Source of the DNA: an uncultured virus (IMG/VR IMGVR_UViG_3300024507_000366)
Taxonomy: Duplodnaviria > Heunggongvirae > Uroviricota > Caudoviricetes
Virus record (IMG/VR): IMGVR_UViG_3300024507_000366
Length of the DNA stretch: 64,000 nucleotides
Reading direction: 5' to 3' (one strand)
The notes below the pieces were generated by a model. It was not told the origin of the DNA. It made no database searches and saw only the letters and a program-made list of their open reading frames with translations. Of this stretch, positions 4,303 to 49,155 are shown piece after piece (within the stretch, counting starts at the first letter, position 1; every line of letters begins with the position of its first letter). A program made the position numbers and the translations under genes.

Positions 4303-4303
4303 A

Positions 4304-5688: not shown

Positions 5689-6635
5689 ACCATATCCTAG
5701 CTTATTGCGTACTGAATGAATTTCATCCATCAAGATTAAATATCTCAAGAGATTTAAACAGCGTAAATCTTTTTAGAAACGAAGCTCACTGCTCCATCTC
5801 TAGGGATGGAGTTCGTGTTTTAAGAAAGTCAAATTGGATCGACGAGATACGACTTAATTTCTTTATCCAATTTACAGACGCAACCATTAGAAGCTATAAT
5901 TTGTGCGATCTTGATTTTGAAGCCATTGTAAACTTTAACGATGGTCCGCAGAACGACTCAAAGGAAACAAGGCTGTGCTTTGCGCGTCCAAGAAACAGTC
6001 CACACATCTGCATTCCAGATTCTCATTTGTCGCGAACAGCTAGCATCTGTAGCCAAATAGAGAGCGTGGATATTCCATTTGAAGAAAAAATGGATAAAGC
6101 GATTTTTTGCGGGTCAGATACTGGCGCAAAGCACAATGGTTCAGTGCAAAGAATTGATCTTTGCAGAAAGTACAGATACAGCCAACTAGTAGACGCTAAG
6201 ATTACAAACTTTGTCGAATTTCCCTTTGAGGATGGCATCGCTGGAGCTTATATCAGTATTGCTGATCAATTAAAATATAAATATATTTTAAATGTCAATG
6301 GCAACACCACATCTTGGGAGAGGCTAATCTGGGCAATGAAATCAAATTCTATTTGTATTTATGTTCGCCCTCCGTCGTATCAAGATGAGATTTCTTGGTA
6401 CTATCATATGTTTGATGTCATTCAGGGCGTAATTTATGTTGATCAAGACTGTATCGAACACTTTATGGCACAGATGGGAAATGATAAAAATTACATTCAA
6501 TCAATTAAAAATTGTCAAAAATATCTAGCAAATGCTCTTGACAAACCAGACGTTCATGCCGCATACTTCTCCGCAATCCTAAAAGCTTATAACAGTTATT
6601 ACAATGGAGGCGGCGATGTTCAAAAACTCAGTTAA
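5685..6635 (+). CDS. Glycosyltransferase family 90 (CAP10-like)
   Basis: KAIFCGSDTG, DQLKYKYILNVNGNTTSWERL...SNS. Confidence 0.7.
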   Translation: MNHILAYCVLNEFHPSRLNISRDLNSVNLFRNEAHCSISRDGVRVLRKSNWIDEIRLNFFIQFTDATIRSYNLCDLDFEAIVNFNDGPQNDSKETRLCFARPRNSPHICIPDSHLSRTASICSQIESVDIPFEEKMDKAIFCGSDTGAKHNGSVQRIDLCRKYRYSQLVDAKITNFVEFPFEDGIAGAYISIADQLKYKYILNVNGNTTSWERLIWAMKSNSICIYVRPPSYQDEISWYYHMFDVIQGVIYVDQDCIEHFMAQMGNDKNYIQSIKNCQKYLANALDKPDVHAAYFSAILKAYNSYYNGGGDVQKLS

Positions 6636-8054: not shown

Positions 8055-9208
8055 GCAAGAAGGCAAAAGAAGAACAGAAAGAAGATGGCATTTCATCCAA
8101 GAGTATTCTTGGCGATTTTTTAAAGTCCAACAAGGACGACCATTACAATTTCGAAGAGTCTGTAAACTACAAGGTTTCTACAGGCTCTTTGAATATGGAT
8201 ATGCAAACAGGCGGCGGTCTTGGACCAGGTCTACATCGCTTCGTAGGCTTTACCGAGGGCGGCAAGACCTCTGCGTCACTTGAGGTTATGCGGAACTTCC
8301 TCAATACCGTTCCAAGCTCAAAGGGCTTTTATATTAAAGCCGAGGGTCGCCTTTCCCCAGAGATGCAAAAGAGAAGCGGAGTAAAGTTCGTGTTTGACCC
8401 GTCCGAATGGGAGGCTGGCACCTGTTTTGTTTTTGAATCGAACATCTATGAGACCGTCGTAGACGCAATGCGAAAGCTGGTAATGTACAACGACGAAAAG
8501 AACAAGTATATGTTCATCGTTGATTCTGTTGACGGACTCATTGCGAAGAACGATCTTGATAAGACTTTTGAAGAGTCTGTAAAGGTCGCTGGTGGCGCCG
8601 TTATCGCAGCAAACCTTATGAAAAAGATTTCTATCGCGCTTACCAAGCGCGGGCATATGGCGATCTTTATCTCTCAGGTCAGAAGCGATATCAAACTGGA
8701 CCCTTACAGTTCAGCACCAATCCGCCAAACATCCGCCACTGGTGGCAATGCCCTGCTTCACTTTGCTAATTTTATCTTTGAATTTGAGCCTCGCTTTGAG
8801 GGAGATATTATCCTTAAAGACCCAAGCATAAAGAAGTCAGACCCGATAAAAAACCCAATCATCGGACACAACTGTAAGATTTATATCAAAAAAAGTCCAA
8901 ATGAGAAGAGCAAGAATAGAGTTACATATCCAATCAAGTATGGACGCAGCAATGGCAGATCCGTATGGGTTGAGAAGGAGATTGTTGATATGCTGCTTAC
9001 TTGGGAACTCGTAAGTCGTGCTGGAGCTTGGTATGCCGTATCGGAAGATCTTGCCAAAATTGCCAAGGATATCGGCATAGATATGCCTGAAAAATTTCAA
9101 GGGGAAAACGCGGTCTTTGAATTTATTGAAGCCAACGAAAAGCTGACTAAGACCCTGCACAAGTACTTCATTAATATTATCGCTGAGAACTCAGCAAATG
9201 AAGTTTAA
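8051..9208 (+). CDS. recA: RecA/UvsX-like recombinase
   Basis: STGSLNMD...GGG, Walker A GFTEGGKT, Walker B FIVDSV, FISQVR, TGGNALLHFA, AGAWY. Confidence 0.88.
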   Translation: MSKKAKEEQKEDGISSKSILGDFLKSNKDDHYNFEESVNYKVSTGSLNMDMQTGGGLGPGLHRFVGFTEGGKTSASLEVMRNFLNTVPSSKGFYIKAEGRLSPEMQKRSGVKFVFDPSEWEAGTCFVFESNIYETVVDAMRKLVMYNDEKNKYMFIVDSVDGLIAKNDLDKTFEESVKVAGGAVIAANLMKKISIALTKRGHMAIFISQVRSDIKLDPYSSAPIRQTSATGGNALLHFANFIFEFEPRFEGDIILKDPSIKKSDPIKNPIIGHNCKIYIKKSPNEKSKNRVTYPIKYGRSNGRSVWVEKEIVDMLLTWELVSRAGAWYAVSEDLAKIAKDIGIDMPEKFQGENAVFEFIEANEKLTKTLHKYFINIIAENSANEV

Positions 9209-9608
9209 GACCCTAAATGGCAAAGAGCGCTTTCTTAAAAATGCTAAAAAATACATAATTAATTGGGAAGCGAAATCCAAAAGCAACATCCAATGGAGGG
9301 TAAAGCAGTTTTTATTACCCTACTGGAAGTACGACGTTGTGTTTGAGGAGATAAGGGTTGTAGGAACCCGCCTATCTCTTGACATTTATAATGCAAATAA
9401 AAAGATAGCGATAGAGGTTCAGGGCAAGCAGCATCAAACCTACAACCCTTATTTCCACGGCAATGATCGGCGTAAGTGGTTGTCCCAGCTTAAACGTGAC
9501 GATTTAAAGTTGCAATTTTGCTTGACAAACGGCATAAAGCTGGTAGAAATCTACGAGACCGATCTCATCTGCAAAGAAACGTTCGAAAAGCAAGGAATCA
9601 TTTTATAA
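9198..9608 (+). CDS. PD-(D/E)XK very-short-patch-type endonuclease
   Basis: LSLDIY...IAIEVQGKQH...RDDLK..FC..NGIKLVEI. Confidence 0.7.
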   Translation: MKFKTLNGKERFLKNAKKYIINWEAKSKSNIQWRVKQFLLPYWKYDVVFEEIRVVGTRLSLDIYNANKKIAIEVQGKQHQTYNPYFHGNDRRKWLSQLKRDDLKLQFCLTNGIKLVEIYETDLICKETFEKQGIIL

Positions 9609-13464: not shown

Positions 13465-14199
13465 ATGATCCCACTATTCAAGTCTAGCTTTTCTGTAGGG
13501 AAAAGCATTCTGACTCTGGCCGAGCCAGAGAAGCAGAAGAAAGACGGTCCAGACAGCATTGTCCAGATTGCACTAGAGAATAATCTGAAGACACTGCATT
13601 TGGTAGAAGATTCTCTGACAGGGTTCTTGACGGCATTCAAGACCTGTGCAAAGCACGACATTCATCTTAGATTCGGATTGAGGATGGATATTTGCAACTC
13701 TTACGAGTCTATCGATACCTCCAAAAGCAAAGTGATTCTTTTTGCCAAGAATGATTCTGGCTTTAAAAGCGTCAGTAAGATATTCACTTATGCGAATACA
13801 GAGAAAGATGGCATCATCTCTAATGACGACCTAGCGTCACGCTTAACTGACGACATCCTGTTGGCTATTCCATTTTACGATAGTTTCGTTTGGCAGAACT
13901 GGCAGTACTTTAGAAACTGTATGCCTACATTTTTAAAAGATTTCGATCACGTATTCTTTACGGAAAATAATAAACTCCCTTTTGACTCTGTAATTGGAGA
14001 GGCTGTAAAATCAATGACCGCTGCCCCAGTAATGGTGAAGTCCATCTATTATAAAAACAGAGATGACTATGAGGCTTGGTTAACTTATAAAATTGCCTGC
14101 AACAGAAGAATGGGAAAGCATCAAACGCTTTCGGCTCCAGAAGTTAATGGCTGCGCGAGTAAGGAGTTCTGTTTCCAATCTTGGAAGGAGGCATCGTGA
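13465..14199 (+). CDS. Stand-alone PHP domain of DNA polymerase III alpha (metal ligands degenerate)
   Basis: PLFKSSFSVGKS (cf. HLHVHSxYSxLD), LVEDSLTGF, FGLRM, ILFAKNDSGF. Confidence 0.75.
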   Translation: MIPLFKSSFSVGKSILTLAEPEKQKKDGPDSIVQIALENNLKTLHLVEDSLTGFLTAFKTCAKHDIHLRFGLRMDICNSYESIDTSKSKVILFAKNDSGFKSVSKIFTYANTEKDGIISNDDLASRLTDDILLAIPFYDSFVWQNWQYFRNCMPTFLKDFDHVFFTENNKLPFDSVIGEAVKSMTAAPVMVKSIYYKNRDDYEAWLTYKIACNRRMGKHQTLSAPEVNGCASKEFCFQSWKEAS

Positions 14200-14822
14200 A
14201 TACGCTTTTAAAACAAAATCTTAATCAGAAGTTTGTAGTATTTGATACAGAGACCGAAGGCTTGTCTCTTACCTCTTCTCGCCCTTGGCAGCTTTCTTGG
14301 ATTGTTTGTCAAGGAGAAAAGATCCTTGAGTCACACGACGAATTTGTTTTATACCCTGATCTGAATGTTTCAGATGAAGCAGCGAGAATAACTGGGTTTG
14401 ACAAGTCATCTTATCTTTCAAAGGCCAAGCCACCAATCGATGTGTGGCAGAAATTTGCACCGTATCTTTATGACTCCAACAACCTTCTTGTTGGTCAGAA
14501 TATTTTAAATTATGACATTTATATTCTGAACACAATGATGGGCACAATTGGAATTCAGAATAACTGGAGCTTTCTGAATCGCTGCATTGACACACGCGCG
14601 CTATCAACGGCAATGTTCAAAGGCATTCAGCCATCTGGCGACTTGCTGCCTTGGCAGATGAAGTTGATGAACTTTCACGAAAAGGGTTTAAAGACCAGTC
14701 AAGCTTTTATGCTAAAGCACTTTGCAATTGATCACGACCCCAGTAAGCTACACAATGCGCTATACGATATCACAATGAATTATAAGATTTTCCGTAAGCT
14801 TATTATGGAGGTAAACGTATGA
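14196..14822 (+). CDS. DEDDh 3'-5' exonuclease (DnaQ/epsilon-like)
   Basis: FDTETEG, GQNILNYD, IDT, HNALYD; GTG start overlaps PHP stop. Confidence 0.85.
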   Translation: MNTLLKQNLNQKFVVFDTETEGLSLTSSRPWQLSWIVCQGEKILESHDEFVLYPDLNVSDEAARITGFDKSSYLSKAKPPIDVWQKFAPYLYDSNNLLVGQNILNYDIYILNTMMGTIGIQNNWSFLNRCIDTRALSTAMFKGIQPSGDLLPWQMKLMNFHEKGLKTSQAFMLKHFAIDHDPSKLHNALYDITMNYKIFRKLIMEVNV

Positions 14823-17383
14823 TCGATTTTAACGCCTGCTTTCAAAAGTACGAGCATCCCGTTCCTCCGGGCGTACGTCTTCCAGAGATCAAGATAGATG
14901 CCCGCCACTATGAGAATCTTGGCATCTCACCTTCTGTTTCAAACTATGAGTTCCTCCGTCAACTCTGCCTCAAGGCAGTCAAGGAAAAAGGCATCGACAA
15001 ACTTAACAATAAAAAAGAATATTATGAACGAGCAAAATACGAGCTTTCAGTTTTTGAAGAACTGGGCTTCACTGACTATATCCTGCTTAATTGGGACATT
15101 CTTAATTACGCTCATGAGCATAGCATTCCTACTGGCTATGGGCGTGGCTCTGCTGCTGGTTCTCTTATTCTCTTTCTTATTGGGGTTACCAATGTAGACC
15201 CGATCAAGAATGGGCTGTTCTTTGAACGCTTCGTCTCAAAGAGCCGCGCAAAGAAGATTGTGGTGGACGGAGTCACTTATCTCGATGGCTCACTGATGCC
15301 TGACGTAGATAATGACATTGAGTTCTCTCGCCGTCAGGATGTAATCAATTACATCAAGACTAAGTATTCAGGCAAGACTTGTAAGATCTTGACTATGAAT
15401 ACTTTGACAGGAAAACTTTGCATTAAAGAGTGTGGCAAGATCGTCGGAGAGATGACGGAGGATGATGTTAATGCGGTAAGCGACTCTATCCCAAAGCAAT
15501 TCGGTAAAGTCTTTGCCCTGAAGGACGCTTACGATGAAAGCGAAATCTTCAGAGCATTCTGCGATAAGAATCCTAAAGTATTCAAGATCGCCAAGAAGAT
15601 CGAGGGTTTAAACAAGAATACTGGCGTTCATCCATCCGGCATATCAATCTCTTATTATAATAACGAGGACATTATGCCGCTTCAGAAGACTGGAGATGGC
15701 GAGGTTGTTTCTGGATACGATATGAATAACGTATCAGAAATCACAGTTAAGTTTGATATCCTTGGGCTTAGAACACTCTCTGTTGTGTTTGACACTTGTC
15801 AGAGACTTGGGCTTGATTTTAAAACAGTTAATTTTGACCAGCCTTCAACTTATGGATTTCTGCAAGACCTAAAGAATCCAAAGGGCTTGTTCCAAATTGA
15901 AGCCAATACAAACTTCCACGTTTGCAAGAAAGTCAAGCCGCGAAATATGCTTGAGCTTGCCTGCGTACTATCTCTTGCGCGACCCGGAGCATTGGACTTT
16001 CTAGATCAGTACGCTAGATACGTTGAGACTGGAGATTTCCAATCCGTTCACCCGTTCTTTGACGATATCCTTAGCATTACTGGCGGCATCCCAATCTTCC
16101 AAGAGCAGCTAATGAAGATGATTGTCAAGGTTGGATTTACCCTTGACGAAGCTGAAACTGTCCGGCGCATCATTGGTAAGAAGAAGGTTAGCGAGATGCC
16201 AGCTTGGAAAGAGAAGATTGTAAACAAGGTAAGGGAGAATAATCTTGATTCGCAAATCGCAGATGTCCTTTGGAAGGTAGCCGAGGATAGTGCAAACTAT
16301 TCGTTTAATCTTTCTCACGCAGCAAGTTACGCCACACTTTCTGCGCTAACGACTTATTTAAAGTTCAATTATCCCAAAGAGTTCTTCTTGGCTCTACTCA
16401 AGTCTTCTAGACACGAACCAGATCCGCACGAAGAGATCGAAACAATCTCTCAAGAACTACCATTTTTTGGAATCAGATTGCTTGCCCCAGACTTGGTTAA
16501 GTCTAAGCCTGATTTTGAAATCGAAGATAATAATATTCGCTTTGGCTTAAACGCCATCAAGGGAGTTTCAGATAAGATTCTTTCCAAGTTGCTTGAGTTT
16601 CGCCAAGGAGAGTTCTCAAATAAAATTGATTGTTTCGATGGAGCCAAGGAAGCCAGTCTGAATATCGGAGTTCTTTCCGCACTGATTCAAGCCGGAACCT
16701 TATCCAGCTTTTCGGAAAAGCGTTGCAGACTTGTGCTTGAAGCCCAGACTTATAATGTTCTTACTGATCGCGAGAAGAGAAATGTAAAACTTCTGGCGCC
16801 AAAATATGGCTACGATGTCTTGACAACCATCTCGGAAGCGATGAAGAATAAGCAAGTTGCAGATGACGGCAAAGCTCTGATGTCCGAAAAACGCTACAAT
16901 ACTTTCAAAGCCAAGTACGAACCATTCAAGCGTATTTATGAGATGAATAAGAAATACGAGAAGTTTGCTAATTGGTTTTTTGAGAAGCGGCTTCTTGGAT
17001 ACAGCTATACTTACAAGCTGAAGGAAGTGTTCCAAGATACTGACTCTGACGCTTTGCTAACCAGCTATGAAGTTCTGCAATCAGAACCAAGGCAAGCGGT
17101 GAAGATGGTTGGTATTGTTAAGGAAGCTCGCAAAAAAACTAGCAGAAACGGCAACAACTATTTGTTTATCAAACTATCCGATGAGTACGGCCAGATCTCT
17201 TGCCGGTTAATGGACGGTCGCCAAGATAATATGACAAGATATTATGAAGGCGAAGGTCGCACGCCCAAGGAAGATGAGATTGTAATTGTGTATGGAAATA
17301 AATCTGACGATTCTATATTTTTAAATACACTGTCAATCTTGAACGAGAAAATTTATACAAAGCTTTCTGATTTAGAATCTTAA
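14819..17383 (+). CDS. dnaE: DNA polymerase III alpha catalytic core (no PHP domain)
   Basis: GRGSAAGS, FERF, MPDVDND, HPSG, KFDILGL, FQEQ, YSFNLSHA, IRFGLNAIKG, C-terminal OB fold. Confidence 0.93.
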   Translation: MIDFNACFQKYEHPVPPGVRLPEIKIDARHYENLGISPSVSNYEFLRQLCLKAVKEKGIDKLNNKKEYYERAKYELSVFEELGFTDYILLNWDILNYAHEHSIPTGYGRGSAAGSLILFLIGVTNVDPIKNGLFFERFVSKSRAKKIVVDGVTYLDGSLMPDVDNDIEFSRRQDVINYIKTKYSGKTCKILTMNTLTGKLCIKECGKIVGEMTEDDVNAVSDSIPKQFGKVFALKDAYDESEIFRAFCDKNPKVFKIAKKIEGLNKNTGVHPSGISISYYNNEDIMPLQKTGDGEVVSGYDMNNVSEITVKFDILGLRTLSVVFDTCQRLGLDFKTVNFDQPSTYGFLQDLKNPKGLFQIEANTNFHVCKKVKPRNMLELACVLSLARPGALDFLDQYARYVETGDFQSVHPFFDDILSITGGIPIFQEQLMKMIVKVGFTLDEAETVRRIIGKKKVSEMPAWKEKIVNKVRENNLDSQIADVLWKVAEDSANYSFNLSHAASYATLSALTTYLKFNYPKEFFLALLKSSRHEPDPHEEIETISQELPFFGIRLLAPDLVKSKPDFEIEDNNIRFGLNAIKGVSDKILSKLLEFRQGEFSNKIDCFDGAKEASLNIGVLSALIQAGTLSSFSEKRCRLVLEAQTYNVLTDREKRNVKLLAPKYGYDVLTTISEAMKNKQVADDGKALMSEKRYNTFKAKYEPFKRIYEMNKKYEKFANWFFEKRLLGYSYTYKLKEVFQDTDSDALLTSYEVLQSEPRQAVKMVGIVKEARKKTSRNGNNYLFIKLSDEYGQISCRLMDGRQDNMTRYYEGEGRTPKEDEIVIVYGNKSDDSIFLNTLSILNEKIYTKLSDLES

Positions 17384-20742: not shown

Positions 20743-20979
20743 ATGAACAATAAGAACAATCGCGCAATCACTACGATTCAAAATACCGCAGGCCGCTTTT
20801 TTGGCCTTGAGACTGCTACTGAAATTATTAACGCTCGCCTTGTCGAGTTTGGCCCCTCGCTTATCACCGTGGAGGACCGTAACTCTGGAACCAATCGACG
20901 CTTCGCTAAGAATCAAATCACAGCTGTAACTTTTAAGGGACGAAGAATCACTGCTGTTCCTAATAAGCCCCGAGCTTAA
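20743..20979 (+). CDS. Small basic hypothetical protein
   Basis: Clean ORF followed by terminator. Confidence 0.65.
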   Translation: MNNKNNRAITTIQNTAGRFFGLETATEIINARLVEFGPSLITVEDRNSGTNRRFAKNQITAVTFKGRRITAVPNKPRA

Positions 20980-21003: not shown

Positions 21004-21032
21004 GAGCCGAATGCAAATTCGGCTCTTTTTTT
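21004..21032 (+). terminator. Intrinsic terminator
   Basis: GAGCCGAAT-GCAA-ATTCGGCTC followed by T7. Confidence 0.9.
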
Positions 21033-21033
21033 A

Positions 21034-21039
21034 GTGTAA
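21034..21039 (+). promoter_or_regulatory. GTGTAA motif, candidate late promoter
   Basis: Immediately after the terminator, 10 nt before ATG 21050. Confidence 0.75.
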
Positions 21040-21049
21040 ATACTAAGGT

Positions 21050-21454
21050 ATGAATCTCACCTCATTAGCGCCCGCAGGATTGGTAAGCGCCCAAAGCCCA
21101 CTTACAGACCCAGTTATTATTGGGACAATAAAGGAAGACATCTACACAATCAATGACGGCGTTGGGTTTGAAGTTGATCCGGGCAACGGGTCGATTCAAT
21201 TGGTTGCTCTTGCTGCCAACCGCAGTCCACAAGCTACTAACTTTCTTGCGGGCGAAAGTGTTACTTTGATGGTAGATGATGGCAGCGGCTACGCTTTGAC
21301 TTGGACAGGAGCAACTTGGGGCACGGGCTCAATTAGCGGTGTTAGCTGGGTTGGTGGCAACGCGCCAGTTTTAGCGGCGACTGGGTACACTGTATTGCAG
21401 TTTTGGAAGATCGACACTAGAATTTACGGCGCTTTAGTTGGTAATGTTTTATGA
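21050..21454 (+). CDS. Short tail-fibre C-terminal/adapter-like protein
   Basis: DPGNGSIQ...GESVTLMV...VSWVGGNAP..A.TG..V..FW motif typical of fibre C-termini; 17-aa leader. Confidence 0.55.
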   Translation: MNLTSLAPAGLVSAQSPLTDPVIIGTIKEDIYTINDGVGFEVDPGNGSIQLVALAANRSPQATNFLAGESVTLMVDDGSGYALTWTGATWGTGSISGVSWVGGNAPVLAATGYTVLQFWKIDTRIYGALVGNVL

Positions 21455-23499
21455 GGCACCACTTCGTAAGAAGTTTAGCTGGGTCAAGAGATCCAAATTT
21501 TAAAAATGTAACCTTGTTGTTGCACGGAGATGGAACAAACGGGGGACAGAATAATACATTTTTAGACAGTAGCGCGAGCAATAACGCTATTACCAGAACT
21601 GGAAATGTAACACAGGGATCATTTAGCCCATACGGAGATAGGTGGAGTAATTATTTTGATGGAACAGGCGATTATTTAGTTACTGCCGCTAATACTGCTT
21701 TCCAGCTAGGAACTGGAGATTTTTCAGTTGATCTTTGGTTTTATCAAATTGGCAGCACAGCCAGTATTGGAACTCGCGCTATTTTTGGTATAGGGAATAA
21801 TGGGCAAACTGGAGATATTCAACTTTTTAATTGGTGGCCCTTTGGAGGTAATCCAGCAAATACACTAGCATTAAATTCATCTGCTGGTGGCACACTTGTA
21901 GTTACAAATACCGCTTATATCCCAAATACTTGGAATCATGTTGCAATTTCTAGAGCCTCTGGAGTAGTTTCTATTTATTTAAATGGTGTTCGTGTAGCTA
22001 ATGCCAGTTTTACAACCAATGCTTCGTACAATATATTAACAATTGGGCGCCCTTATACTAATTTAAGTCAGGAACATTGGCTTGGTTACATTTCAAACTT
22101 TCGTTTAGTTAAAGGAGTGGCGCTTTATTCTGGGACAAATATTAATGTTCCAACCTCTCCACTTTCTGCTATTGCGAATACATCCATATTAACTTGTCAA
22201 TCCAATCGCTTTCGCGACGCTAGCTCTAACAACTTTACCATCACCCGCAATGGCGATGTTTCTGTTCAACGTTTTTCCCCACTCTCTCCAGACGCAGAAT
22301 ACAGAACAGATAGAATTGCAGGCAGTGCATATTTTGATGGGAGTGATTACTTACTTGCGGCAAACAGAGCGCTAAGACTTGCATCTGGATTTTTTACAGC
22401 AGAATGCTGGGTTTACTTAAGTAGTTCTCCAGCAAGTGATTTTTCTGGATATACAATATTTTCTGATTATTATTGGAGCGGCGGTAACACTGGAGGGTAT
22501 TTTGTTACTATCGGGAATAATGGCAAAGTTAATTTATTTGCCTCTTCTGGAACTTTCAACACACAGTCCTCTAATATTTTAGCTTCAAACAATTCTATAA
22601 CTCATGGACAATGGAATCATATTGCAATTGTTAGAGGCGCGGGAGACTTAATAAATATATACATAAACGGAGTATCAACTACAACACCAATCGCTAGAAC
22701 TTCCCTACAACTTTCTAGCGGTGGCGCTGGAAATCATCAAAGTATGGTAGGCGCTAGAGTACATGATACTGTTAGTATATATGGCGGATTTATTGGAATT
22801 ATTTCTGATGTAAGAGTAATAAATGGCAAATGTTTATATACTGCCAATTTCACCCCGCCAACTGAACCTTTGACAGCTATTCCAGAAACAACATTCTTGG
22901 GCAGATTCGCTAACGGATCTATTGTGGATAATGCGATGATGAATAATTGGGAGACTGTAAACAGTACACAAATTAGCACAAGTATTAAAAAATACGGAAC
23001 TGGATCTATATATAATCCAGCAGGCTCATCTTTAAGAGTAAACTCAATTGCTCCAAATGCTTTTGGCACGGGCGACTTTACTGTTGAATTTTGGCTTTAT
23101 CCACTTGGCACTCAATTTGGAACTCCAATATCAAATTGGACTGGACCCGGCAACTGGGCTTTCTTATTTGAAGGCCAGCAAATAACATTTTCTGGGCCGG
23201 CTGCTGGATATCAAGTTTTTGTAAAAGATCCTACAAATATAACACTAAACCAATGGACTCATATTGCAGTTAGCAGAGCTTCTGGAACGATGAGACTTTT
23301 TAGAAATGGAATTGTTGTGGCATCTGCTGCTAACTCGACCAATTTTACTGCTGCTGGGCAATTATCTATTGGCAGTTTATATGGAGATGGTGCTTCTTGG
23401 CAATTTAACGGCTATTTTGATGATATAAGAATAACATCTGGCATAGCCAGATACACTTCGGATTTCGCCCCACCCACAGCCCCACTTCCTGACTTTTAA
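21451..23499 (+). CDS. Triple LamG/concanavalin-like virion lectin (receptor-binding candidate)
   Basis: VTLLLHGDG; three repeats of GDFTVEFW...WxHIAxxR...GYxxDxR. Confidence 0.8.
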   Translation: MRHHFVRSLAGSRDPNFKNVTLLLHGDGTNGGQNNTFLDSSASNNAITRTGNVTQGSFSPYGDRWSNYFDGTGDYLVTAANTAFQLGTGDFSVDLWFYQIGSTASIGTRAIFGIGNNGQTGDIQLFNWWPFGGNPANTLALNSSAGGTLVVTNTAYIPNTWNHVAISRASGVVSIYLNGVRVANASFTTNASYNILTIGRPYTNLSQEHWLGYISNFRLVKGVALYSGTNINVPTSPLSAIANTSILTCQSNRFRDASSNNFTITRNGDVSVQRFSPLSPDAEYRTDRIAGSAYFDGSDYLLAANRALRLASGFFTAECWVYLSSSPASDFSGYTIFSDYYWSGGNTGGYFVTIGNNGKVNLFASSGTFNTQSSNILASNNSITHGQWNHIAIVRGAGDLINIYINGVSTTTPIARTSLQLSSGGAGNHQSMVGARVHDTVSIYGGFIGIISDVRVINGKCLYTANFTPPTEPLTAIPETTFLGRFANGSIVDNAMMNNWETVNSTQISTSIKKYGTGSIYNPAGSSLRVNSIAPNAFGTGDFTVEFWLYPLGTQFGTPISNWTGPGNWAFLFEGQQITFSGPAAGYQVFVKDPTNITLNQWTHIAVSRASGTMRLFRNGIVVASAANSTNFTAAGQLSIGSLYGDGASWQFNGYFDDIRITSGIARYTSDFAPPTAPLPDF

Positions 23500-23501
23500 T
23501 T

Positions 23502-23984
23502 ATGAATATCGCCATCATCAACAATGGTCAAGTCACTCAAGTTGGTGACTACAGAGCTTTATTTCCCAACACCAGCTTTCCGCCTAGCGGCCCCAACGAC
23601 CTTTTCCTTTCTGAGAATAATGCAATGAAGGTTAATCTCTGGAAGGAGTATAATCCAGCCACTGAAAAACTTGTCAGCTGTGAGCCTTACATTGAGAACG
23701 GTTGGGTTTATACAGTAACGGTTCAAGCTTTGACGCCAGAAGAGATCGCGGAGCGCGACATTGTCCCACCTTACAGAGTCACTAAGGATACCATTACTAG
23801 CAGAGTTTTGGAAGCCAATAAACTACCTGACTTGATGGCGCTGATAGCTTCGCTACCCGCAGAGCAGAAGTTTCTTTGGGAAGGTTTCTCTTGGTTTTGG
23901 AATAATAATCAAACAGTTCGCGGTATGGCGACCCAGATTGGGCTGGACCCAGAAGTTGTTTTGGCGCCAGATCCTTATCTTTAA
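23502..23984 (+). CDS. Fibre-associated/assembly chaperone-like protein
   Basis: LFPNTSFP...CEPYI; position directly after the lectin gene. Confidence 0.5.
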   Translation: MNIAIINNGQVTQVGDYRALFPNTSFPPSGPNDLFLSENNAMKVNLWKEYNPATEKLVSCEPYIENGWVYTVTVQALTPEEIAERDIVPPYRVTKDTITSRVLEANKLPDLMALIASLPAEQKFLWEGFSWFWNNNQTVRGMATQIGLDPEVVLAPDPYL

Positions 23985-23988
23985 TTCG

Positions 23989-23994
23989 GTGTAA
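23989..23994 (+). promoter_or_regulatory. GTGTAA motif, candidate late promoter
   Basis: GGTGTAAA 9 nt before ATG 24004. Confidence 0.7.
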
Positions 23995-24003
23995 ATATAA
24001 AGT

Positions 24004-24138
24004 ATGAATCTTTCTACTGCAATTCCTGCTGGATTAGTTGGCCCTCAAGGTGCCGCTGGCACATCAGGCACCAGTGGAACGAGCGGCACCGCACCAGACG
24101 ATGACCAAAACGTCATCGCAAACCAAGTCTTTAGCTAA
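24004..24138 (+). CDS. 44-aa peptide absent from the ORF track (leader + GTS repeats + DDDQNVIANQVFS)
   Basis: MNLSTAIPAGLVGPQGAAGTSGTSGTSGTAPDDDQNVIANQVFS; N-terminus homologous to ORF 21050; has its own GTGTAA motif. Confidence 0.75.
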   Translation: MNLSTAIPAGLVGPQGAAGTSGTSGTSGTAPDDDQNVIANQVFS

Positions 24139-24146
24139 TTTAAAAA

Positions 24147-24509
24147 ATGGCAACATTCTCAAAAGTACTCTTATCGGGCTCAACCCAAGGCAAAGCCATT
24201 AAAGTTGCAGCCACAACATCAACCGGCACCACAATTCACGCGACTGGCACATCGTCCTCAGTTATTGATGAGGTGTGGCTGTATGCATATAATTCATCAG
24301 CTAGCGCAGTTGTACTCACGATTCAATACGGTGGAACCACTGCGGTTGACAATGATATTAAATTAACTATTCCCGCAACTTCTGGATTGACGCTAGTTGT
24401 GCCCGGTTTAATATTAACTGGTACAGGTTCTGCCGCAAATACAGTTTATGCTTATGCTGGAACAACAAATGTTATTACAATTTCTGGTTACGTTAATAGA
24501 ATTTCATAA
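24147..24509 (+). CDS. Virion adapter-like beta protein
   Basis: MATFSKVLLSGSTQGK...DEVWLYAYN...ISGYVNRI; Thr/Ser-rich. Confidence 0.55.
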   Translation: MATFSKVLLSGSTQGKAIKVAATTSTGTTIHATGTSSSVIDEVWLYAYNSSASAVVLTIQYGGTTAVDNDIKLTIPATSGLTLVVPGLILTGTGSAANTVYAYAGTTNVITISGYVNRIS

Positions 24510-25408
24510 TGGCTAATCCGTTAAAAAGAGCGGTTTCTTCCAGTCAAGTGTCAGACTGGTTTTCTTCATCGAGTTCAATATCGACGCCTTCTAGAAGACA
24601 GAGTTTTCAAGTTGAGTACTTGGTTGTCTCTGGCGGCGGCGGTGGCGGCGCCGTCAATTCTTCTAATGGAAGTGCTGGTGGAGGAGGTGGAGGAGGCTTA
24701 TTAATTGGAGCTTTAACTTTAAATTTAAATCAATCTTACTCTATTACAGTTGGTGCAGGAGGGGCTGGAAATACGAAAACAGGAGATTTTAGAGGCACCA
24801 ATGGAACTGACTCAATTTTTTCATCTGTATCAACTAATGGCGGGGGAGGCGGTGGATCAGGCGACAGTGGTACTCGTCTCGGTAAATCGGGAGGCTCTGG
24901 TGGCGGAACTGGATATAACGGAGGATCTACTGGTGGAGCAGGCAATACGCCTCCAACTACTCCAAGTCAGGGCAATAATGGCGGCGGCGGCGGGCCAGCA
25001 GGCTCACCCTATGGCGGTGGTGGTGGCGGTGGTGCGGGCGCTGTTGGAGCATCTGGTCACGGTGGAGGAGGCGGCAATGGCTCGATTTCTTCTATAACTG
25101 GCGCAGCGGTATATTACGCTGGTGGCGGTGGTGGAGGTAACGAAGGAGCTTCTGCTGGAAGTGGCGGATTTGGTGGCGGTGGAAATGGAACAAGAAGCGG
25201 CTCTGGCATTAACGGAACGCAAAACTTAGGTGGCGGTGGTGGCGGAGCGGGCGGCGTTGCAGGCGGAAACGGAGGTAACGGCGGCTCTGGAGTAGTGATT
25301 TTAAAAAGTTCATTTCAGGCAACCTCTACCACTGGTTCCCCTAGCTTGACTACTAGTGAAGGATATTACATTTACACATTTAATTCTAGCGGGAGTATAA
25401 CTTTTTAA
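24509..25408 (+). CDS. Glycine-rich domain protein (fibre/adhesin)
   Basis: VEYLVVSGGGGGG...GGSGVVI...IYTFNSSGSITF. Confidence 0.75.
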   Translation: MANPLKRAVSSSQVSDWFSSSSSISTPSRRQSFQVEYLVVSGGGGGGAVNSSNGSAGGGGGGGLLIGALTLNLNQSYSITVGAGGAGNTKTGDFRGTNGTDSIFSSVSTNGGGGGGSGDSGTRLGKSGGSGGGTGYNGGSTGGAGNTPPTTPSQGNNGGGGGPAGSPYGGGGGGGAGAVGASGHGGGGGNGSISSITGAAVYYAGGGGGGNEGASAGSGGFGGGGNGTRSGSGINGTQNLGGGGGGAGGVAGGNGGNGGSGVVILKSSFQATSTTGSPSLTTSEGYYIYTFNSSGSITF

Positions 25409-25774
25409 ATGGCTCATTTCGCAAAAATCGACGACGATAATATTGTTCAACAAGTAATTGTTGTATCTAACAGCGATTGTCTTGATTCCAACGGGCAAGA
25501 AAGTGAAGCTATTGGCATAGCTTTTTGCCAAAATCTTTTTGGCGGCGGTCGCTGGGTCCAAACTTCTTATAACAATAATATTCGTGTGCGCTATGCTGGA
25601 ATTGGTTACCGCTACGACGAAGTTCGCGACGCTTTCATCGCCCCTCAACCTTATTTATCTTGGACTTTTAATGAAACAACATTAGACTGGCAGGCACCGA
25701 TTCCATATCCAAACGATGGCAAGGTTTATGTATGGAACGAACCAACTCTTCAATGGATAGAAGTTCCAGTGTAA
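25409..25774 (+). CDS. Fibre-associated small protein
   Basis: MAHFAKID...WVQTSYNNNIR..YAGIGY.YD...DAFIAPQPY.SW; directly follows the Gly-rich gene. Confidence 0.65.
   Translation: MAHFAKIDDDNIVQQVIVVSNSDCLDSNGQESEAIGIAFCQNLFGGGRWVQTSYNNNIRVRYAGIGYRYDEVRDAFIAPQPYLSWTFNETTLDWQAPIPYPNDGKVYVWNEPTLQWIEVPV
25769..25774 (+). promoter_or_regulatory. GTGTAA motif, candidate late promoter
   Basis: Doubles as Val-stop of the upstream gene; 9 nt before ATG 25784. Confidence 0.65.
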
Positions 25775-25783
25775 ATTTAATAT

Positions 25784-25996
25784 ATGCCACTACCAACTCC
25801 TAAGAAAAATCAAGAAGAAGACGATTTCATCTCGTCCTGTATGGGTTCCGAGACAATGAACAAAGAGTACCCAAATCAAAAGCAGCGCGCTGCGATTTGC
25901 TACTCCCAATACCGCCGTAAGAAGAAAAAGGCGCAAGGTTCAATGGACGAAACCAAGTGGGACGAGGGTGACGTTTCTCGCGTTATTATCGAATAA
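25784..25996 (+). CDS. Small phage head-associated-type protein
   Basis: MPLPTP...DFISSCM...EYP..KQRAAICYSQ module. Confidence 0.55.
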   Translation: MPLPTPKKNQEEDDFISSCMGSETMNKEYPNQKQRAAICYSQYRRKKKKAQGSMDETKWDEGDVSRVIIE

Positions 25997-26047: not shown

Positions 26048-26512
26048 ATGCGCCTTAATTTTTATAAACCCAACAAGTCGAATACAGGTACAGCGGTATC
26101 TTTTAACACATCTTATAAGGACAAGGATCAGACAAAAGGCGAAGCTCCAGATCTTTACGTAAGCTTCGTCAAGCAGGCAGGATGGAACGAGCAGACCCGC
26201 AAGGGCTCATTCTCAGAAAACGCCAAAAACCCAGAGAAGACTGCGGCGCTAAAGCTTAACGAGACAGAGGCGGCATCGATTATTCGTGCAGTAAGGTGCT
26301 CGTCTAAGTTCTCTACTGTTCACGCTTATCAGGGCTCAACAACATCAATTATGTTTGGGCCGTATCAAAAGAAGAGTGGCGAAGACGCTTTCTCATTTAG
26401 TATCAAGAAGGGTGAGCAATCCTTCCTGATCGGCTTTGAGCTTGGTGAGGCCGAGCTTATTGCTCAGTATATGGAAAACTATCTTCGCGTTTTCTTTGAG
26501 TGTTCAGTATGA
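26048..26512 (+). CDS. Putative ssDNA-binding protein (PC4/Whirly-like)
   Basis: Two beta-beta-beta-helix repeats (KLNETEAASII; FELGEAELI); fold assignment is tentative. Confidence 0.4.
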   Translation: MRLNFYKPNKSNTGTAVSFNTSYKDKDQTKGEAPDLYVSFVKQAGWNEQTRKGSFSENAKNPEKTAALKLNETEAASIIRAVRCSSKFSTVHAYQGSTTSIMFGPYQKKSGEDAFSFSIKKGEQSFLIGFELGEAELIAQYMENYLRVFFECSV

Positions 26513-28425
26513 AAAAGACCGTAGTTCTCCACAGTAATCACAGCAGAGCTTTTACAGGTTTTGGCAAGAATATGCGAAATGTTCTTCGCTATTTGCATAA
26601 GACTGGTAAGTACAATCTTGTTGAGTTTGCCAATGCAAAAACTAAAGACTCTGAAGAGCTAAAAACATTACCGTGGAGAGCTTACGGTACACTGCCAGAA
26701 AACAGTAAACTGCAATCGTTTGGCGGCGATCAAACCAAGATCAGAACTGCGGCTTATGGTCTGTATGAGATTGACGGTTTAATGAAAGAGGTCAAGCCTG
26801 ATTTCTATATCGGCATTGAGGATATCTGGGCCTTGGCTCCGTTAGTCGAAAAGAAGTGGTGGAACCAAAACTGTATGATTTGGACAACCTTGGACTCCCT
26901 GCCCATTTATCCAGATGCGCTCAAAATGATTCCCAAGGTAAATCATTATTATGCTTGGGCCTCCTTTGTTTCCAAGGAGGTCAAACGTCTTGGTTATGAT
27001 GAAGGCGCAATCAAAACACTTAGAGGAGCGGGCGAGACTTCTGCCTTTTACAGACTTAGCGACGAGAATCGCGCCGCTCTGAGAAAAGAGTTTAATCTGT
27101 CTGATGAGTTCATCATTGGCTTCGTGTTCCGAAATCAGCTTCGCAAAAGCGTGCCAAACCTCCTGCAAGGCTTCAAGATCTTCAAGGATAAGAACCCCAA
27201 GGTAAAAGCCAAGCTTTTGCTTCACACCCACTGGTCAGAAGGCTGGGACATTCCTCGCTTGATCAAGGATGCCGGTATTGAAAACTCGGACGTTCTCACC
27301 ACCTACTTCTGCAAAAGCTGCAAGCAGTTTGAAGTGAAGCCGTTTATCGGCCAAAAGATTCAGTGCAGATACTGTGGCGCCAAAGGAACTGTCGAAACCA
27401 CAAATATATCAGACGGAGTATCAGAAGCACAGCTTAACGAAATATATAACTTAATGGATGTTTACTGCCATCCGTTCACTAGTGGTGGGCAGGAGATTCC
27501 AATCACAGAAGCTAAACTAACAGAGCTTGTCACCTTAGTAACAAACTATTCTTGTGGCGAAGACTTCTCCACGGAAGAGAGCGGCGGTATCCCATTGAAT
27601 TGGAAACCTTATTACGAACCAGGTAGTAATTTTATTAAAGCTACCACTCTTCCAGAATCAATTGCCGAAAAGCTTGAGAGGGTATATAAGATGAGTCCTT
27701 CCAAGCGCGCCGAGATGGGTAAGGTTGGACGACGATTCGTAATCGACAACTTGTCTGCCGAAATTATTGGCAAACAGTTGGAAAAAATCATCGATGAAGC
27801 TCCTCAAGTTGAGTGGGATTTTAATACTTCTTTTGTGCCCCGCGACCCAAGCTACAATGGCAAAGAAGAACTTCAGAACTTAGACTGGGTCATTGACCTG
27901 TACGCCAACATTTTAAAGGTCAAGGTGGACCCAAATGACGACGGCGTAAAAAGCTGGATGAGCCAGCTAAACAATGGAATCCCCCGCGAGCAAATTCTAA
28001 ACTACTTTAAAAACGTTGGCGCGAAAGAGAATCAAGAAAACATCAAAATTGAGTTCTCTGATGTACTGGATAAGAATGATAAAGGTCGAAGAATCTTATT
28101 TGTAATGCCAGAAAGTGCGGGAGATGTATTCCTATCCACTTCTTTACTACCCTCGATCAAGAAGCTTTATCCAGATTTTAATATTTATTTTGCAACTAAA
28201 CCTGAATATTTAAATATCCTAGAGGGTAATCCACTAATCCACAAAACCATTGTGTTTAGTCCTTTTATGGAAAACCTCTTAACAATGGAAGGTCACGGCG
28301 CTTATGAAGGCTACTTTAATCTTGCTTACCTACCTCACTTTGGCACCCAAAAGCTTTTTGACTATCAGCACAATGGTGCCGATCTTATCGAATTAAATCT
28401 CTATTCCGAAAATGCACATTCTTGA
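26509..28425 (+). CDS. GT4-like glycosyltransferase + Zn ribbon + DUF4214-like + GT9 N-terminal half
   Basis: TGFG, RNQLRK, YNLMDVYCHPFTSGGQEIPITEA; CKSC/CRYC; ESAGDVFLSTSLL...GNPLI. Confidence 0.75.
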   Translation: MKKTVVLHSNHSRAFTGFGKNMRNVLRYLHKTGKYNLVEFANAKTKDSEELKTLPWRAYGTLPENSKLQSFGGDQTKIRTAAYGLYEIDGLMKEVKPDFYIGIEDIWALAPLVEKKWWNQNCMIWTTLDSLPIYPDALKMIPKVNHYYAWASFVSKEVKRLGYDEGAIKTLRGAGETSAFYRLSDENRAALRKEFNLSDEFIIGFVFRNQLRKSVPNLLQGFKIFKDKNPKVKAKLLLHTHWSEGWDIPRLIKDAGIENSDVLTTYFCKSCKQFEVKPFIGQKIQCRYCGAKGTVETTNISDGVSEAQLNEIYNLMDVYCHPFTSGGQEIPITEAKLTELVTLVTNYSCGEDFSTEESGGIPLNWKPYYEPGSNFIKATTLPESIAEKLERVYKMSPSKRAEMGKVGRRFVIDNLSAEIIGKQLEKIIDEAPQVEWDFNTSFVPRDPSYNGKEELQNLDWVIDLYANILKVKVDPNDDGVKSWMSQLNNGIPREQILNYFKNVGAKENQENIKIEFSDVLDKNDKGRRILFVMPESAGDVFLSTSLLPSIKKLYPDFNIYFATKPEYLNILEGNPLIHKTIVFSPFMENLLTMEGHGAYEGYFNLAYLPHFGTQKLFDYQHNGADLIELNLYSENAHS

Positions 28426-29587
28426 GCGTTACGCCCTTTCTTGTGGAGTTAAAATAGATAAGCCATTTATTTTGGAGCAGTATTATCCAATAGCCTTGGA
28501 CAAATACATTGTTTTTCAAACTAGCGGCAAGGGTAACTCCAGACAATACGATTACTGGCTAAAGGTTTTCCAATACATCAGAGAATATACCAAAGATTAT
28601 AAAATCGTTCACGTAGGGGTAGAAAGCGACCAAAGTGTTGCAGGAGTCGATCTTGATCTCAGGGGTAAGACCAGTATCAGACAGCTAGCATATCTTATTA
28701 AAAACAGTTGCTTATACCTTGGAATTGACAGTTTATCGACCCATTTGGCAGGACACTACGACAAGAAGATCGTCGCCCTGTATTCTTATTGCTATGCTCA
28801 GAACTGCTTTCCAATCTGGGGCAAGCGCCATAACCGCTCATTGATTGAGGTTAATTGGGCGGAACAAGGTAAACCTTCCTTCTCCCTAACCGAAAAGAAA
28901 AAGAATATTAATACAGTTAAGCCCGAGATCATCGCTAAGGCAGCTTTGGATCATCTTGGAGTAACTAACAACCTAGATCTGGTAAAAACTCTTTTTATTG
29001 GCGCGGAGTATCACAACCCAACCATAGAAGTTGTCCCCGACTCAACCAGCTATCCAATCTTTATCAAAGATAAAATCTGCAACGTCAGAATGGATTATCA
29101 TTTTGATGAGCAGAACCTAATGCGGCTAGCTAGTATCTGCAAAGTTAATATTGTTACTGCAAAAGAGATCAATATTAATATTTTAAATTCGATCAAAGCA
29201 AAAATTTGTGGTCTAAACGTCATCGCCAGCAATGATATCTCAGAAGAATACCTGACCAAAGTGAAGTCGTTAGGTATCAAATTGAATCTTTCGGCACCAT
29301 TTAATGACGAGTGGTCCGCGCTTTGTGAAAAATTCTTTGATTTTAAATTAGATAAGGACGAGGTTATCACCAAGTCCAGAATTAAAAATGCATCAGAAAT
29401 CGACGAATCTTGCAATTTTAATTCTGAAAAAATCATCTTTTCGGAAGGAAAAGTGTATTCGTGCAAACTTTTTTGGGAAAAGAAGCAGCCAAAGCTTGAC
29501 AGGTCAGCGAAAGTCGTAGATGATCAGGCATTCTGGCAGGAGTCAGATTACTTCTACATTTACAAAGATGAGCGACCAAACCTTTAA
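28412..29587 (+). CDS. GT9 C-terminal half plus unknown domain
   Basis: DLRGKTSIRQLAYLI...LGIDSLSTHLAG...IVALY. Confidence 0.7.
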   Translation: MHILERYALSCGVKIDKPFILEQYYPIALDKYIVFQTSGKGNSRQYDYWLKVFQYIREYTKDYKIVHVGVESDQSVAGVDLDLRGKTSIRQLAYLIKNSCLYLGIDSLSTHLAGHYDKKIVALYSYCYAQNCFPIWGKRHNRSLIEVNWAEQGKPSFSLTEKKKNINTVKPEIIAKAALDHLGVTNNLDLVKTLFIGAEYHNPTIEVVPDSTSYPIFIKDKICNVRMDYHFDEQNLMRLASICKVNIVTAKEININILNSIKAKICGLNVIASNDISEEYLTKVKSLGIKLNLSAPFNDEWSALCEKFFDFKLDKDEVITKSRIKNASEIDESCNFNSEKIIFSEGKVYSCKLFWEKKQPKLDRSAKVVDDQAFWQESDYFYIYKDERPNL

Positions 29588-49154: not shown

Positions 49155-49155
49155 C

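Follow-up and report, generated by a model that had tools for sequence, protein, structure and literature searches.

The host range of a phage is set by its receptor-binding modules, whose exchange and mounting on the virion have, to our knowledge, been worked out chiefly in a small number of cultured coliphages and phages of Klebsiella. In lambda (Stf/Tfa), P2 (H/G), Mu (S/U) and T4 (gp37/gp38), mosaic fibre genes keep a constant N-terminus, swap their C-terminus and are accompanied by an assembly chaperone, and the gp38-type adhesins of T-even phages carry glycine-rich motifs at the fibre tip. Here, we describe a fibre and adhesin cassette site in an uncultured virus, at positions 21,034 to 25,774 of a 64,000-nucleotide (nt) stretch of the IMG/VR record IMGVR_UViG_3300024507_000366. 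This whole stretch is hereafter called the window. Two cassettes at this site open with the same short N-terminal leader peptide.

Two further groups of proteins are relevant to the design of these cassettes. In C1q and the collectins, an N-terminal segment is followed by a collagen stalk and a globular jelly-roll head, and the subunits of Bacillus endospore appendages (Ena) are linked by a terminal connector peptide. Docking peptides of 7 and 11 residues, as well as the motif MALxxLV, are described at the N-termini of receptor-binding proteins (RBPs) of K1-5-, SP6- and KP32-type phages in one report (PMC6872550), and another states that an N-terminal docking peptide was experimentally required for virion incorporation (PMC13352976).

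A leader peptide common to two cassettes

The open reading frame (ORF) 21050-21454, of 134 amino acids (aa), starts with MNLTSLAPAGLVSAQS, and the ORF 24004-24138, of 44 aa, starts with MNLSTAIPAGLVGPQG and reads MNLSTAIPAGLVGPQGAAGTSGTSGTSGTAPDDDQNVIANQVFS in full. The motif MNLxxxxPAGLVxxQ is common to both, with 9 of the first 16 residues identical. Copies of GTGTAAATA lie at 21034-21042 and 23989-23997, respectively 7 and 6 nt 5′ of the two ATGs. A six-frame scan of the window with MNL.{3,6}P.G returned two matches, which are the two leaders, and among the four matches to P[AS]G[LIVM][LIVM] only the two leaders stand at an ORF start. A first-pass annotation, made from the sequence alone, had reported two cassettes with a common leader of ~16 aa behind the same box, and both ORFs exist as it described them. 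The genes that it placed downstream were also recovered, namely a LamG gene of 682 aa and a 160-aa gene in cassette 1, and genes of 120 aa, 299 aa (glycine-rich) and 121 aa in cassette 2.

Relatives were collected by scanning public viral and metagenome contigs for the back-translated leader, after which gene order was compared; loci are designated by L numbers, L013 and L023 being one 59,798-base-pair (bp) record present in two collections. In the metagenome scan, 12 of 12 loci were true leader genes. Across 14 leaders from nine genomic contexts, residues N2, L3, P8, G10 and L11 are invariant and are encoded by two to four codons each. Of 28 regular-expression matches over all loci, 26 place the motif 1-4 residues behind the initiator Met, the two exceptions being a probable chance match (L008) and a variant on a Peptidase_S74 fibre (L004). 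In the window, leader 1 (MNLTSLAPAGLVSAQS, 21050-21097, + strand, from the six-frame scan) shows 3-4 synonymous and no non-synonymous differences against L013 and its relatives.

About ten architectures follow the leader in all. It is joined to a fibre tip domain directly, through a 30-aa linker or through a collagen stalk of ~690 aa, and it also heads the 44-aa mini form, a 227-aa form made of stalk, domain and tail, collagen fibres of 308, 421 and 469 aa (L009 and L016), glycine-rich fusions of 347 and 350 aa (L012/L018), a fibre of at least 638 aa and a 184-aa domain. In these alignments, the leader is shown to be held constant as a peptide, with its DNA varying and the modules behind it swapped. 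The expectation that the leader would recur in relatives, in front of varied modules, was thus borne out by its position at the extreme N-terminus, by the ~ten architectures and by the invariant residues with synonymous codons.

The triplets PAG-LVG-PQG-AAG-TSG-TSG-TSG of the 44-aa ORF, including its GTS repeats, form a single Gly-X-Y register with the leader, which can therefore be read as an N-terminal cap (MNLSxxxPA) followed by the first triplets of a collagen-like stalk. The stretch of nine residues up to the first Gly is no less conserved than the triplets. Leader-bearing relatives pass the Pfam Collagen cutoff of 27.2 bits (L009, 72 bits; L016, 79 bits). Both cassettes recur, in unchanged order and with long stalks, in L030, a fragment of another large phage. 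Its first gene encodes 812 aa, comprising the leader, ~690 collagen-like residues and the 118-aa domain of the window's 134-aa protein, and is followed by LamG and p160-like genes. Its second gene encodes 227 aa, with leader, collagen, a ~100-aa domain and the tail ...DNDQNILANQIFS, and is followed by the knob (92% identity), glycine-rich and p121 (77%) genes; its third leader-bearing fibre is the one of at least 638 aa. By this comparison, both stalks are shown to be deleted in the window phage, relatives keeping long ones. The first-pass annotation had taken both first genes for fibre ends without a shaft, and it is indeed on long collagen-like fibres that relatives carry the same ends.

On one 27.5-kb contig (L106 15338-18000, L030), four or more fibre cassettes follow one another, of which one carries another N-terminus (MPADSLRAKVTS...) on the same design of collagen and 118-aa domain.

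Exchange of cassettes at one site

The site occupies 21.0-25.8 kb, between a 78-aa gene (20743-20979, +), which is found just upstream of the site in all syntenic relatives with 54-100% aa identity, and a 70-aa gene (25784-25996, +) with 89-100% aa identity in all of them. Judged from gene order, it is a hot spot for fibre and adhesin cassettes. An intrinsic-terminator-like hairpin followed by a T run (21004-21032, +; 9-bp stem, 4-nt loop, TTTTTTT) stands at its left edge, and the same hairpin is also found 5′ of the box in L006, L017, L018 and L024.

Four alternative contents of the site were seen among the window and its syntenic relatives. Both cassettes are present in the window and in a 146,241-bp contig (L014/L019). 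Cassette 2 alone lies right behind the same terminator and box in L006, L017, L024 and L026, where the ClpB-like protein is 97% identical to that of the window. A third cassette, made of the 350-aa fusion of leader and glycine-rich protein and then a p160-like gene, occupies the site in L018, with flank genes 90-97% identical. Cassette 1 alone, preceded by a small Ig-domain gene, is found in L005, L007, L011, L013 and L023, which are much more distant (ClpB-like protein 54-56%, other flank genes 44-54%).

The joints can be located by alignment. The window and L006 are collinear (86% nt identity) up to 21057 and again from 23989, and L006 bases 5985-6008 align at both places, so that cassette 1 appears as a 2955-bp insertion between direct repeats. 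These repeats, GTGTAAATA...ATGAATCT, consist of the box and the first 8 nt, with the left copy at 21034 and the right copy at 23989. Against L013, the flanks are only 66-71% identical in nt, whereas 21049-21648 reaches 92% and 23440-23999 reaches 89%. The 134-aa gene and the first ~65 LamG codons form one 92%-identical block, and the ends of the LamG gene are 90-92% identical, whereas its middle is 67% identical or unalignable. Cassette ends at 90-92% between flanks at 66-71% therefore indicate a recent transfer of cassette 1 between distant phages, after which the lectin-like middle was replaced again. In cassette 2, an alignment with L006 at 87% extends over the 44-aa gene, the 120-aa gene and ~46 codons at the start of the glycine-rich gene, and 24648-25562 is unalignable.

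In L013, the sequence ACG AAT CTA TCT GCC ATT TAA lies between the box and the live ATG, a scar that reads as the dead start of a MNLSAI-type leader. On the right-hand side, the C-terminal half of the 160-aa protein (...LGLDPxVxLAPDPYL) ends cassettes in L012, L016, L018, L020, L022, L025 and L030, directly 5′ of the next box or leader; because it closes cassettes in these seven other contexts, the right-hand cassette end is also shared sequence. The cassette ends (box and leader on the left, partner gene and next box on the right) are thereby shown, as far as alignments go, to be recombination joints. Leader DNA had been put forward earlier as a recombination point, and the direct repeats around cassette 1, the L013 scar and the box at the junctions support a joint made of box plus leader.

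Small Ig-domain proteins with signal-peptide-like starts also edge fibre cassettes in relatives (L013 5338-5945; L025 and L020, after the p160-like gene). The window has an Ig-like 140-aa gene of its own, away from the cassettes, at 61858-62280.

The gene-start box

Box 1 (21034-21042, +) and box 2 (23989-23997, +), both GTGTAAATA, are the left and right direct-repeat copies at the cassette-1 insertion. Box 3 (GTGTAAAT, 25769-25776, +) precedes the right-flank gene and is also found 5′ of the 70-aa gene in L006, L013 and L018. GTGTAAAT occurs six times in the window for 1.92 expected, a count reached in 1 of 100 shuffles. The shorter GTGTAAA stands 7-10 nt 5′ of six ORF starts (71, 762, 7254, 21050, 24004 and 25784), the copies being at 57, 745, 7240, 21034, 23989 and 25769 on the + strand. 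These make up 6 of its 12 occurrences, compared with 0 of 3 for a reversed control motif. The box also precedes other genes in L013 and in the L009 contig, and in L030 AATAAATA or TATAAATA stands 9-14 nt 5′ of each of the three leader genes. A copy of TGTAAATA also lies 13 nt 5′ of the start of a 305-aa tail gene on the minus strand (41411).

T4-type late promoters have the consensus octamer TATAAATA; the window box TGTAAATA is one base off this consensus. From its distribution, the box is best described as a general, apparently phage-specific gene-start signal that is present at every cassette junction. It is possibly a promoter, perhaps of nearly leaderless mRNAs, or else a translation signal. 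The earlier suggestion that both cassettes start with the same promoter therefore holds for the presence of the same box 5′ of both leaders; the box is not special to the cassettes, as it stands 5′ of six ORF starts in the window, and its role as a promoter is putative.

The 44-residue ORF and its C-terminal tail

The first gene of cassette 2 (24004-24138, +) consists of the leader, six more Gly-X-Y triplets and the tail DDDQNVIANQVFS, and is a candidate minimal adaptor. Its 4-kDa product contains neither Lys nor Arg. The ORF is kept at 44-45 aa in three further protein clusters with 84-95% identity, one of which starts with MYNLSS. Compared with L006, it has six synonymous and three non-synonymous differences, corresponding to a ratio of non-synonymous to synonymous rates (dN/dS) of ~0.15; the chance of at least six synonymous differences out of nine is 0.010 (binomial). 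Its match to Pfam Collagen (PF01391) covers seven in-register triplets and stays below the cutoff (18 bits vs 27.2, expectation value (E) 0.0024). A protein search for longer forms returned only one collagen-like protein (E 0.58), and the fused forms came from DNA-pattern scans.

The tail motif, DxDQxIIAxQVFS, resembles the C-termini of long fibres encoded 5′ of a knob gene, as in L009 (at least 682 aa, ...DYVLAAQVFS) and L025 (1124 aa, ...DFNILANQVFS). The terminal Ser is the same in L025 as in the window despite a switch between the TCC and AGC codon families. The pairing of tail and knob was then surveyed in IMG/VR, where 592 of 604 pattern-matched stretches encode a relative of the knob; the best 80 loci were kept, 77 of them with a usable upstream ORF. 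The upstream gene ends in Q[VIM][FY][GSNTA]1-3 in 66 of these 77, in a looser version of it in 7, in a weak one in 3 and in none in 1. Over the surveyed loci, the consensus is DxDQxILAxQVFG, in which the Gln is invariant and the Phe nearly so. In 42 of the 66, the tail gene stops 8-9 nt short of where the knob match starts. The tail-bearing upstream ORFs are between 44 and 1546 aa long, and the 59 complete ones have 48 distinct N-termini; many are short (65-103 aa), and the 44-aa protein of the window is the shortest member surveyed.

Four RNA libraries yielded contigs that match parts of the locus exactly, among them 23491-24057 and 24038-24390, and one contig crosses the terminator and the box. 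Such contigs may include DNA and do not show strand, transcript ends or true transcription, and the parts left uncovered mean nothing.

The 44-aa ORF, for which the first-pass annotation presupposed purifying selection, does look selected, given the ratio of synonymous to non-synonymous differences and the widely conserved C-terminal motif. Comparative data point to a real gene, and an adaptor role fits the 44-aa protein. We considered whether frameshift or read-through could fuse the ORF with the knob and rejected this, since the stop in frame 0 (24136-24138) comes before the A-run, the frame of the knob is itself closed at 24141-24143, and L009, L025 and L030 likewise encode the two as separate genes. 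No earlier description of the tail/knob pairing was found in a literature search that was not exhaustive and had supplements outside its scope; the widespread C-terminal pairing, together with the 44-aa minimal form, is apparently a new element.

The knob, the glycine-rich protein and their partner

The knob gene (24147-24509, +; phrog_30535) starts 8 nt past the stop of the 44-aa ORF. The AlphaFold2 (AF2) model of its 120-aa product is all beta, with a predicted local distance difference test (pLDDT) score of 95.6, and 1505 representative proteins match it with E≤1e-3. In VIA-align, Ena subunits come first (7a02, Z 9.0, root-mean-square deviation 2.5 over 95 residues; 9i0y, Z 8.3), followed by the TNF-like C-terminal domain of Pgp3 (Z 8.2), these Z values lying in the range that the tool calls common for jelly rolls, with many generic jelly rolls matched. 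Foldseek returned Pgp3, the N-terminal lectin domain of BC2L-C, the Sf6/HS1 needle knobs, C1q, TNF and 4-1BBL (E 3e-3 to 1e-2, the first four at about 3e-3, template-modelling (TM) scores 0.43-0.56), and matches in BFVD include cyanophage 'virion structural proteins', a 'C1q domain containing protein' and a 'Collagen-like protein'. A PDB sequence search with the knob family profile found nothing meaningful (best E 0.028). According to the model, the 120-aa protein is a jelly-roll knob. The first-pass annotation had cast it as the adapter, a role that fits the 44-aa protein instead. A complex prediction with three copies of each of the two proteins gave no answer (score 0.01, mark 0.32) and speaks neither for nor against binding.

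Among cultured phages, knob homologues were found only in the Pseudanabaena phages PA-SR01 and Pam2 (39-41% identity), which are freshwater cyanophages of ~140 kb. In PA-SR01 (L110, 76467-79861) and Pam2, no tail-bearing gene lies 5′ of the knob on the same strand, and a 1013-aa protein follows.

The 299-aa glycine-rich protein (24509-25408, +) matches Gly_rich_2 (PF21722) over residues 34-266 (70.2 bits vs 24.3, E 3.3e-19) and is a probable adhesin. Against L006, its nt alignment is limited to the ~46 codons mentioned above, the rest being variable. In 61 of 78 loci, the gene after the knob encodes ~300 aa with a Gly content of 20% or more, scored by composition, as tblastn was unreliable (10 of 80). 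In most of them, a conserved N-terminus (MANPLxRxVSSSQVxDW) is followed by a variable remainder, which suggests a third docking-type segment in the chain. The 121-aa partner gene (25409-25774, +; phrog_7759, PHROG E 1.1e-46) was found by tblastn downstream of the knob and glycine-rich genes in about 27 of 80 loci.

The proteins of cassette 1

In the 134-aa protein (21050-21454, +), the leader is joined directly to a fibre C-terminal domain of ~118 aa, with no stalk, as judged from homologues and its Atlas cluster. The protein is 100% identical in L013, the gene showing 23 synonymous and no non-synonymous differences, of which 3-4 and 0, respectively, fall in the first 16 codons. The 118-aa domain has 416 homologues with many different N-termini. 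Among the 33 examined (from 120 of the 416), the leader is present in 6, and other N-terminal modules, including Mtd_N-like and Phage_fiber_2, in 27. The nearest Atlas cluster is 'phage tail fibre C-terminal domain' (score 0.97, 202 shared features), with PF26209 (Phage_phiTE_241_C) in 48% of members. No profile in the Pfam copy searched matched the C-terminal domain, and a PDB sequence search with the family profile found nothing meaningful (best E 0.035). The AF2 model of the monomer is poor (pLDDT 59.7), and its BFVD matches are sequence-driven leads only. Among cultured phages, the domain matches only Synechococcus phage S-CREM2, in addition to one uncultured record.

The start of the 682-aa gene (21451-23499, +) overlaps the upstream stop (ATGA), and its product contains three Laminin_G_3 (PF13385) domains (E 2e-48, 164.8 bits vs 27.6, three stretches). 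The 160-aa partner gene (23502-23984, +), with its conserved C-terminal half, has no match in Pfam, PHROG or NCBIfam. Atlas provides leads only (Caudo_TAP_N, XkdW, Phage_tail_APC and DUF4376, feature scores 0.81-0.87), with weak structural leads to the Phage_tail_APC cluster (TM 0.58) and DUF4376 (TM 0.47). It is probably a fibre-assembly chaperone.

A docking function for the leader and alternative explanations

We regard it as reasonably probable that the site is a hot spot of exchanged cassettes in which the leader docks trimeric modules on one virion socket, the tail enters the knob and the knob carries the adhesin. Docking to the virion is inferred for the leader from the N-terminal docking peptides of K1-5, SP6 and Klebsiella phages. 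All cassettes are laid out alike, with a box, a gene headed by the 12-16-residue leader MNL-x4-PAGLV(G-x-QG), the putative binding parts and a closing small chaperone-like gene. The leader would be the peptide that plugs each trimeric module into one common virion socket. In cassette 2, the C-terminal tail would plug into the knob, which would carry the glycine-rich adhesin; in cassette 1, the 134-aa protein would carry the LamG lectin. Receptor specificity would be set by the variable middles of the LamG and glycine-rich genes.

Several observations weigh against this scheme. Pfam searches of six tail genes identified only Phage-tail_3, Phage_tail_L with PA14, and Prok-JAB, and hence no socket with a T4gp10-like branching domain in these six, the window covering 46% of the genome. 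No backbone gene common to the window and the other leader-bearing contigs was found beyond the cassette genes with the J protein, DnaE, tail protein L and all window ORFs as queries, although the contigs are fragments, so that this shows nothing either way; a DnaE of 34% identity is encoded on the L004 contig. Other N-termini are found on some fibres of the same arrays (L025, 1124 aa; L106, 333 aa). The DNA of the two window leaders is only ~60% identical past ATGAATCT, and exchange today would therefore need the box and first 8 nt, or a donor with a matching leader; the same lack of common DNA would also guard the tandem from deletion. Finally, the signal of selection on the DNA of the 44-aa ORF comes from one sequence pair.

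The main rival explanation, which we consider unlikely, sees in the leader a cap for trimerisation or registration, which nucleates a collagen-like helix or trimeric fold, has no part in docking and is kept since all payloads have to trimerise. The register shared with the Gly-X-Y triplets (PAG LVG PQG ...) fits such a cap, as does the position of the leader at the head of long collagen stalks in L009, L016 and L030 (Pfam Collagen E 3e-20 to 2e-22). On the other hand, the leader is kept without collagen in the 134-aa protein, the L012/L018 glycine-rich fusions and the 184-aa protein, collagen-like fibres that lack it occur in the same arrays (L106, 333 aa), and MNLSxxxPA, ahead of the first Gly, is conserved to the same degree as the triplets. 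A purely DNA-level origin of the similarity, in which the leaders would be the footprint of gene conversion or of site-specific or homing recombination with no selection on the peptide, appears very improbable. It would account for the insertion between direct repeats of the box and first 8 nt and for the box at every cassette junction, distant relatives included, and other parts of the window do encode HNH and endonuclease VII proteins. Yet the invariant residues use two to four codons across the 14 leaders, the cassette-1 leader shows only synonymous change (3-4 vs 0), the box also precedes unrelated genes, and domain searches of the window genes found no recombinase in or beside the cassettes.

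It is also conceivable, though unlikely, that the 44-aa ORF is what an internal deletion left of a long collagen-like fibre gene, dead and still open only because it is young or because it feeds translation of the knob. Full-length counterparts with the same tail do exist (L025, 1124 aa; L009, at least 682 aa; L030, 227 aa; L073, 1064 aa), the known 44-45-aa forms are all close relatives (84-95% identity), and a knob start 8 nt past the stop would permit translational coupling. A remnant is harder to reconcile with the six synonymous against three non-synonymous differences from L006 (dN/dS ~0.15, binomial 0.010), with the integrity of both functional ends, with the length and frame kept in the variant that starts with MYNLSS, with the terminal Ser preserved through the TCC/AGC switch, and with the short tail-bearing adaptors of 65-103 aa that are common in other lineages.

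The docking scheme can be extended, tentatively and with rather low confidence, to a two-ended peptide standard, with a 12-16-residue N-terminal plug (MNLxxxxPAGLV) for a virion socket, a 13-residue C-terminal plug (DxDQxIIAxQVF[SG]) for an adhesin-bearing jelly-roll knob and a tunable stalk of 0 to ~690 residues between them. If this were true, the 44-aa protein would be two plugs and a seven-triplet collagen helix, the smallest natural fibre adaptor known, and the C-terminal plug and knob would be a pair common to hundreds of environmental phage lineages with about 50 N-terminal plugs, that is, plug-and-play receptor-binding modules.

At this locus, the exchange can be seen in progress in uncultivated river phages: one site has four contents, the joints are narrowed down to a repeat of 24 bp, and a cassette was passed on between phages that otherwise have genes of only about 55% identity. 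The comparison also singles out the N-terminal leader and the C-terminal tail, both very short linear motifs, as what stays constant in an otherwise fully variable system, and together they account for a 44-aa ORF that was missed by gene callers. If these motifs dock, they would be handles for predicting, in metagenomes, which fibre genes fit which virion part, and the 44-aa protein would offer a minimal natural adaptor for studying trimeric fibre attachment.

Genome setting

Window bases 42-64000 are the reverse of bases 3282-67240 of a 67,240-bp IMG/VR record estimated by CheckV as 46% complete. The locus is also present, with 100% aa identity, on the 146,241-bp metagenome contig (L014/L019), and the phage genome is therefore taken to be ~146 kb. 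Locus DNA was found in river metagenomes. Sequence searches found no close cultured relative of the window phage, and the leader pattern had no match in 185,579 prokaryote genomes, giving no prophage or host clue.

Window genes include a split DnaE-type polymerase, a ClpB-like ATPase, a ribonucleotide reductase, rIIA/rIIB and a UvsX-like recombinase. Lambda-type tail-tip genes lie on the minus strand at 34.2-45.8 kb (L with PA14, a JAB-domain K-like protein, an I-like protein and an 1887-aa J-like protein), and by gene content the phage is siphovirus-like, with lambda-type tip genes. The L homologue (44335-45831, -) carries a C-terminal PA14 domain of carbohydrate-binding type, and the I-like protein, at 862 aa, is far longer than that of lambda; both may provide the tail tip with additional surfaces for binding or docking. 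The polymerase (13465-17383) is divided into three adjoining ORFs, which encode an N-terminal part (244 aa), an exonuclease-like part (213 aa) and a core of 854 aa with finger, HhH and OB domains.

The cassettes are flanked by several glycosyltransferase-like genes (26500-29587 and 49105-50052), whose products include a GT1-like protein of 641 aa, with DUF4214, and two that are Glyco_transf_9-like, and an aminotransferase and a nucleotide-sugar epimerase are encoded at 3160-5688; these genes possibly serve to modify the virion or the host surface. HNH and endonuclease VII-type nuclease genes are found among the replication genes (9198-9608, 58933-59472 and 60911-61249), and none adjoins the cassettes. 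The G+C content is 47-51% at 50000-56000, a region that spans ferredoxin-like, endonuclease and rIIA/rIIB genes, against 40-43% elsewhere.

Comparison with known systems

The closest described arrangement is that of the branched RBP systems of K1E/K1-5/SP6 and of KP32, KP34, Menlow and PhiK64-1. In these systems, as in the window, a short conserved peptide at the extreme N-terminus precedes unrelated remainders, and RBP genes are swapped between syntenic structural genes. The window phage differs in being a siphovirus-like phage of ~146 kb whose peptide caps a collagen-like stalk, docking being proposed here by analogy, and its payloads are lectin-like, glycine-rich and jelly-roll proteins in place of depolymerase tailspikes.

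With the mosaic fibre genes of lambda, P2, Mu and T4, the site shares the exchange of a fibre gene and a small chaperone-like gene as a unit between diverged phages. Unlike in those genes, the constant part is only 12-16 residues long, the cassettes hold several genes and stand in tandem, and the stalk is wholly deletable.

C1q and the collectins have in common with the modules described here a collagen-like stalk and a beta jelly-roll head of about 120 residues. In the phage modules, in contrast, stalk and head are separate polypeptides from adjacent genes, presumably joined by the C-terminal tail of the stalk, and in the window the stalk is reduced to seven triplets. Ena subunits are the best structural matches to the 120-aa knob, with an identity of only 7-18%. 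The resemblance to gp38-type adhesins is one of architecture, in that a gene shortly after the fibre gene encodes a glycine-rich protein, which varies more than any other member of the set. Unlike for gp38, a separate knob gene lies between the fibre and glycine-rich genes, and L012/L018 fuse the glycine-rich domain to the leader.

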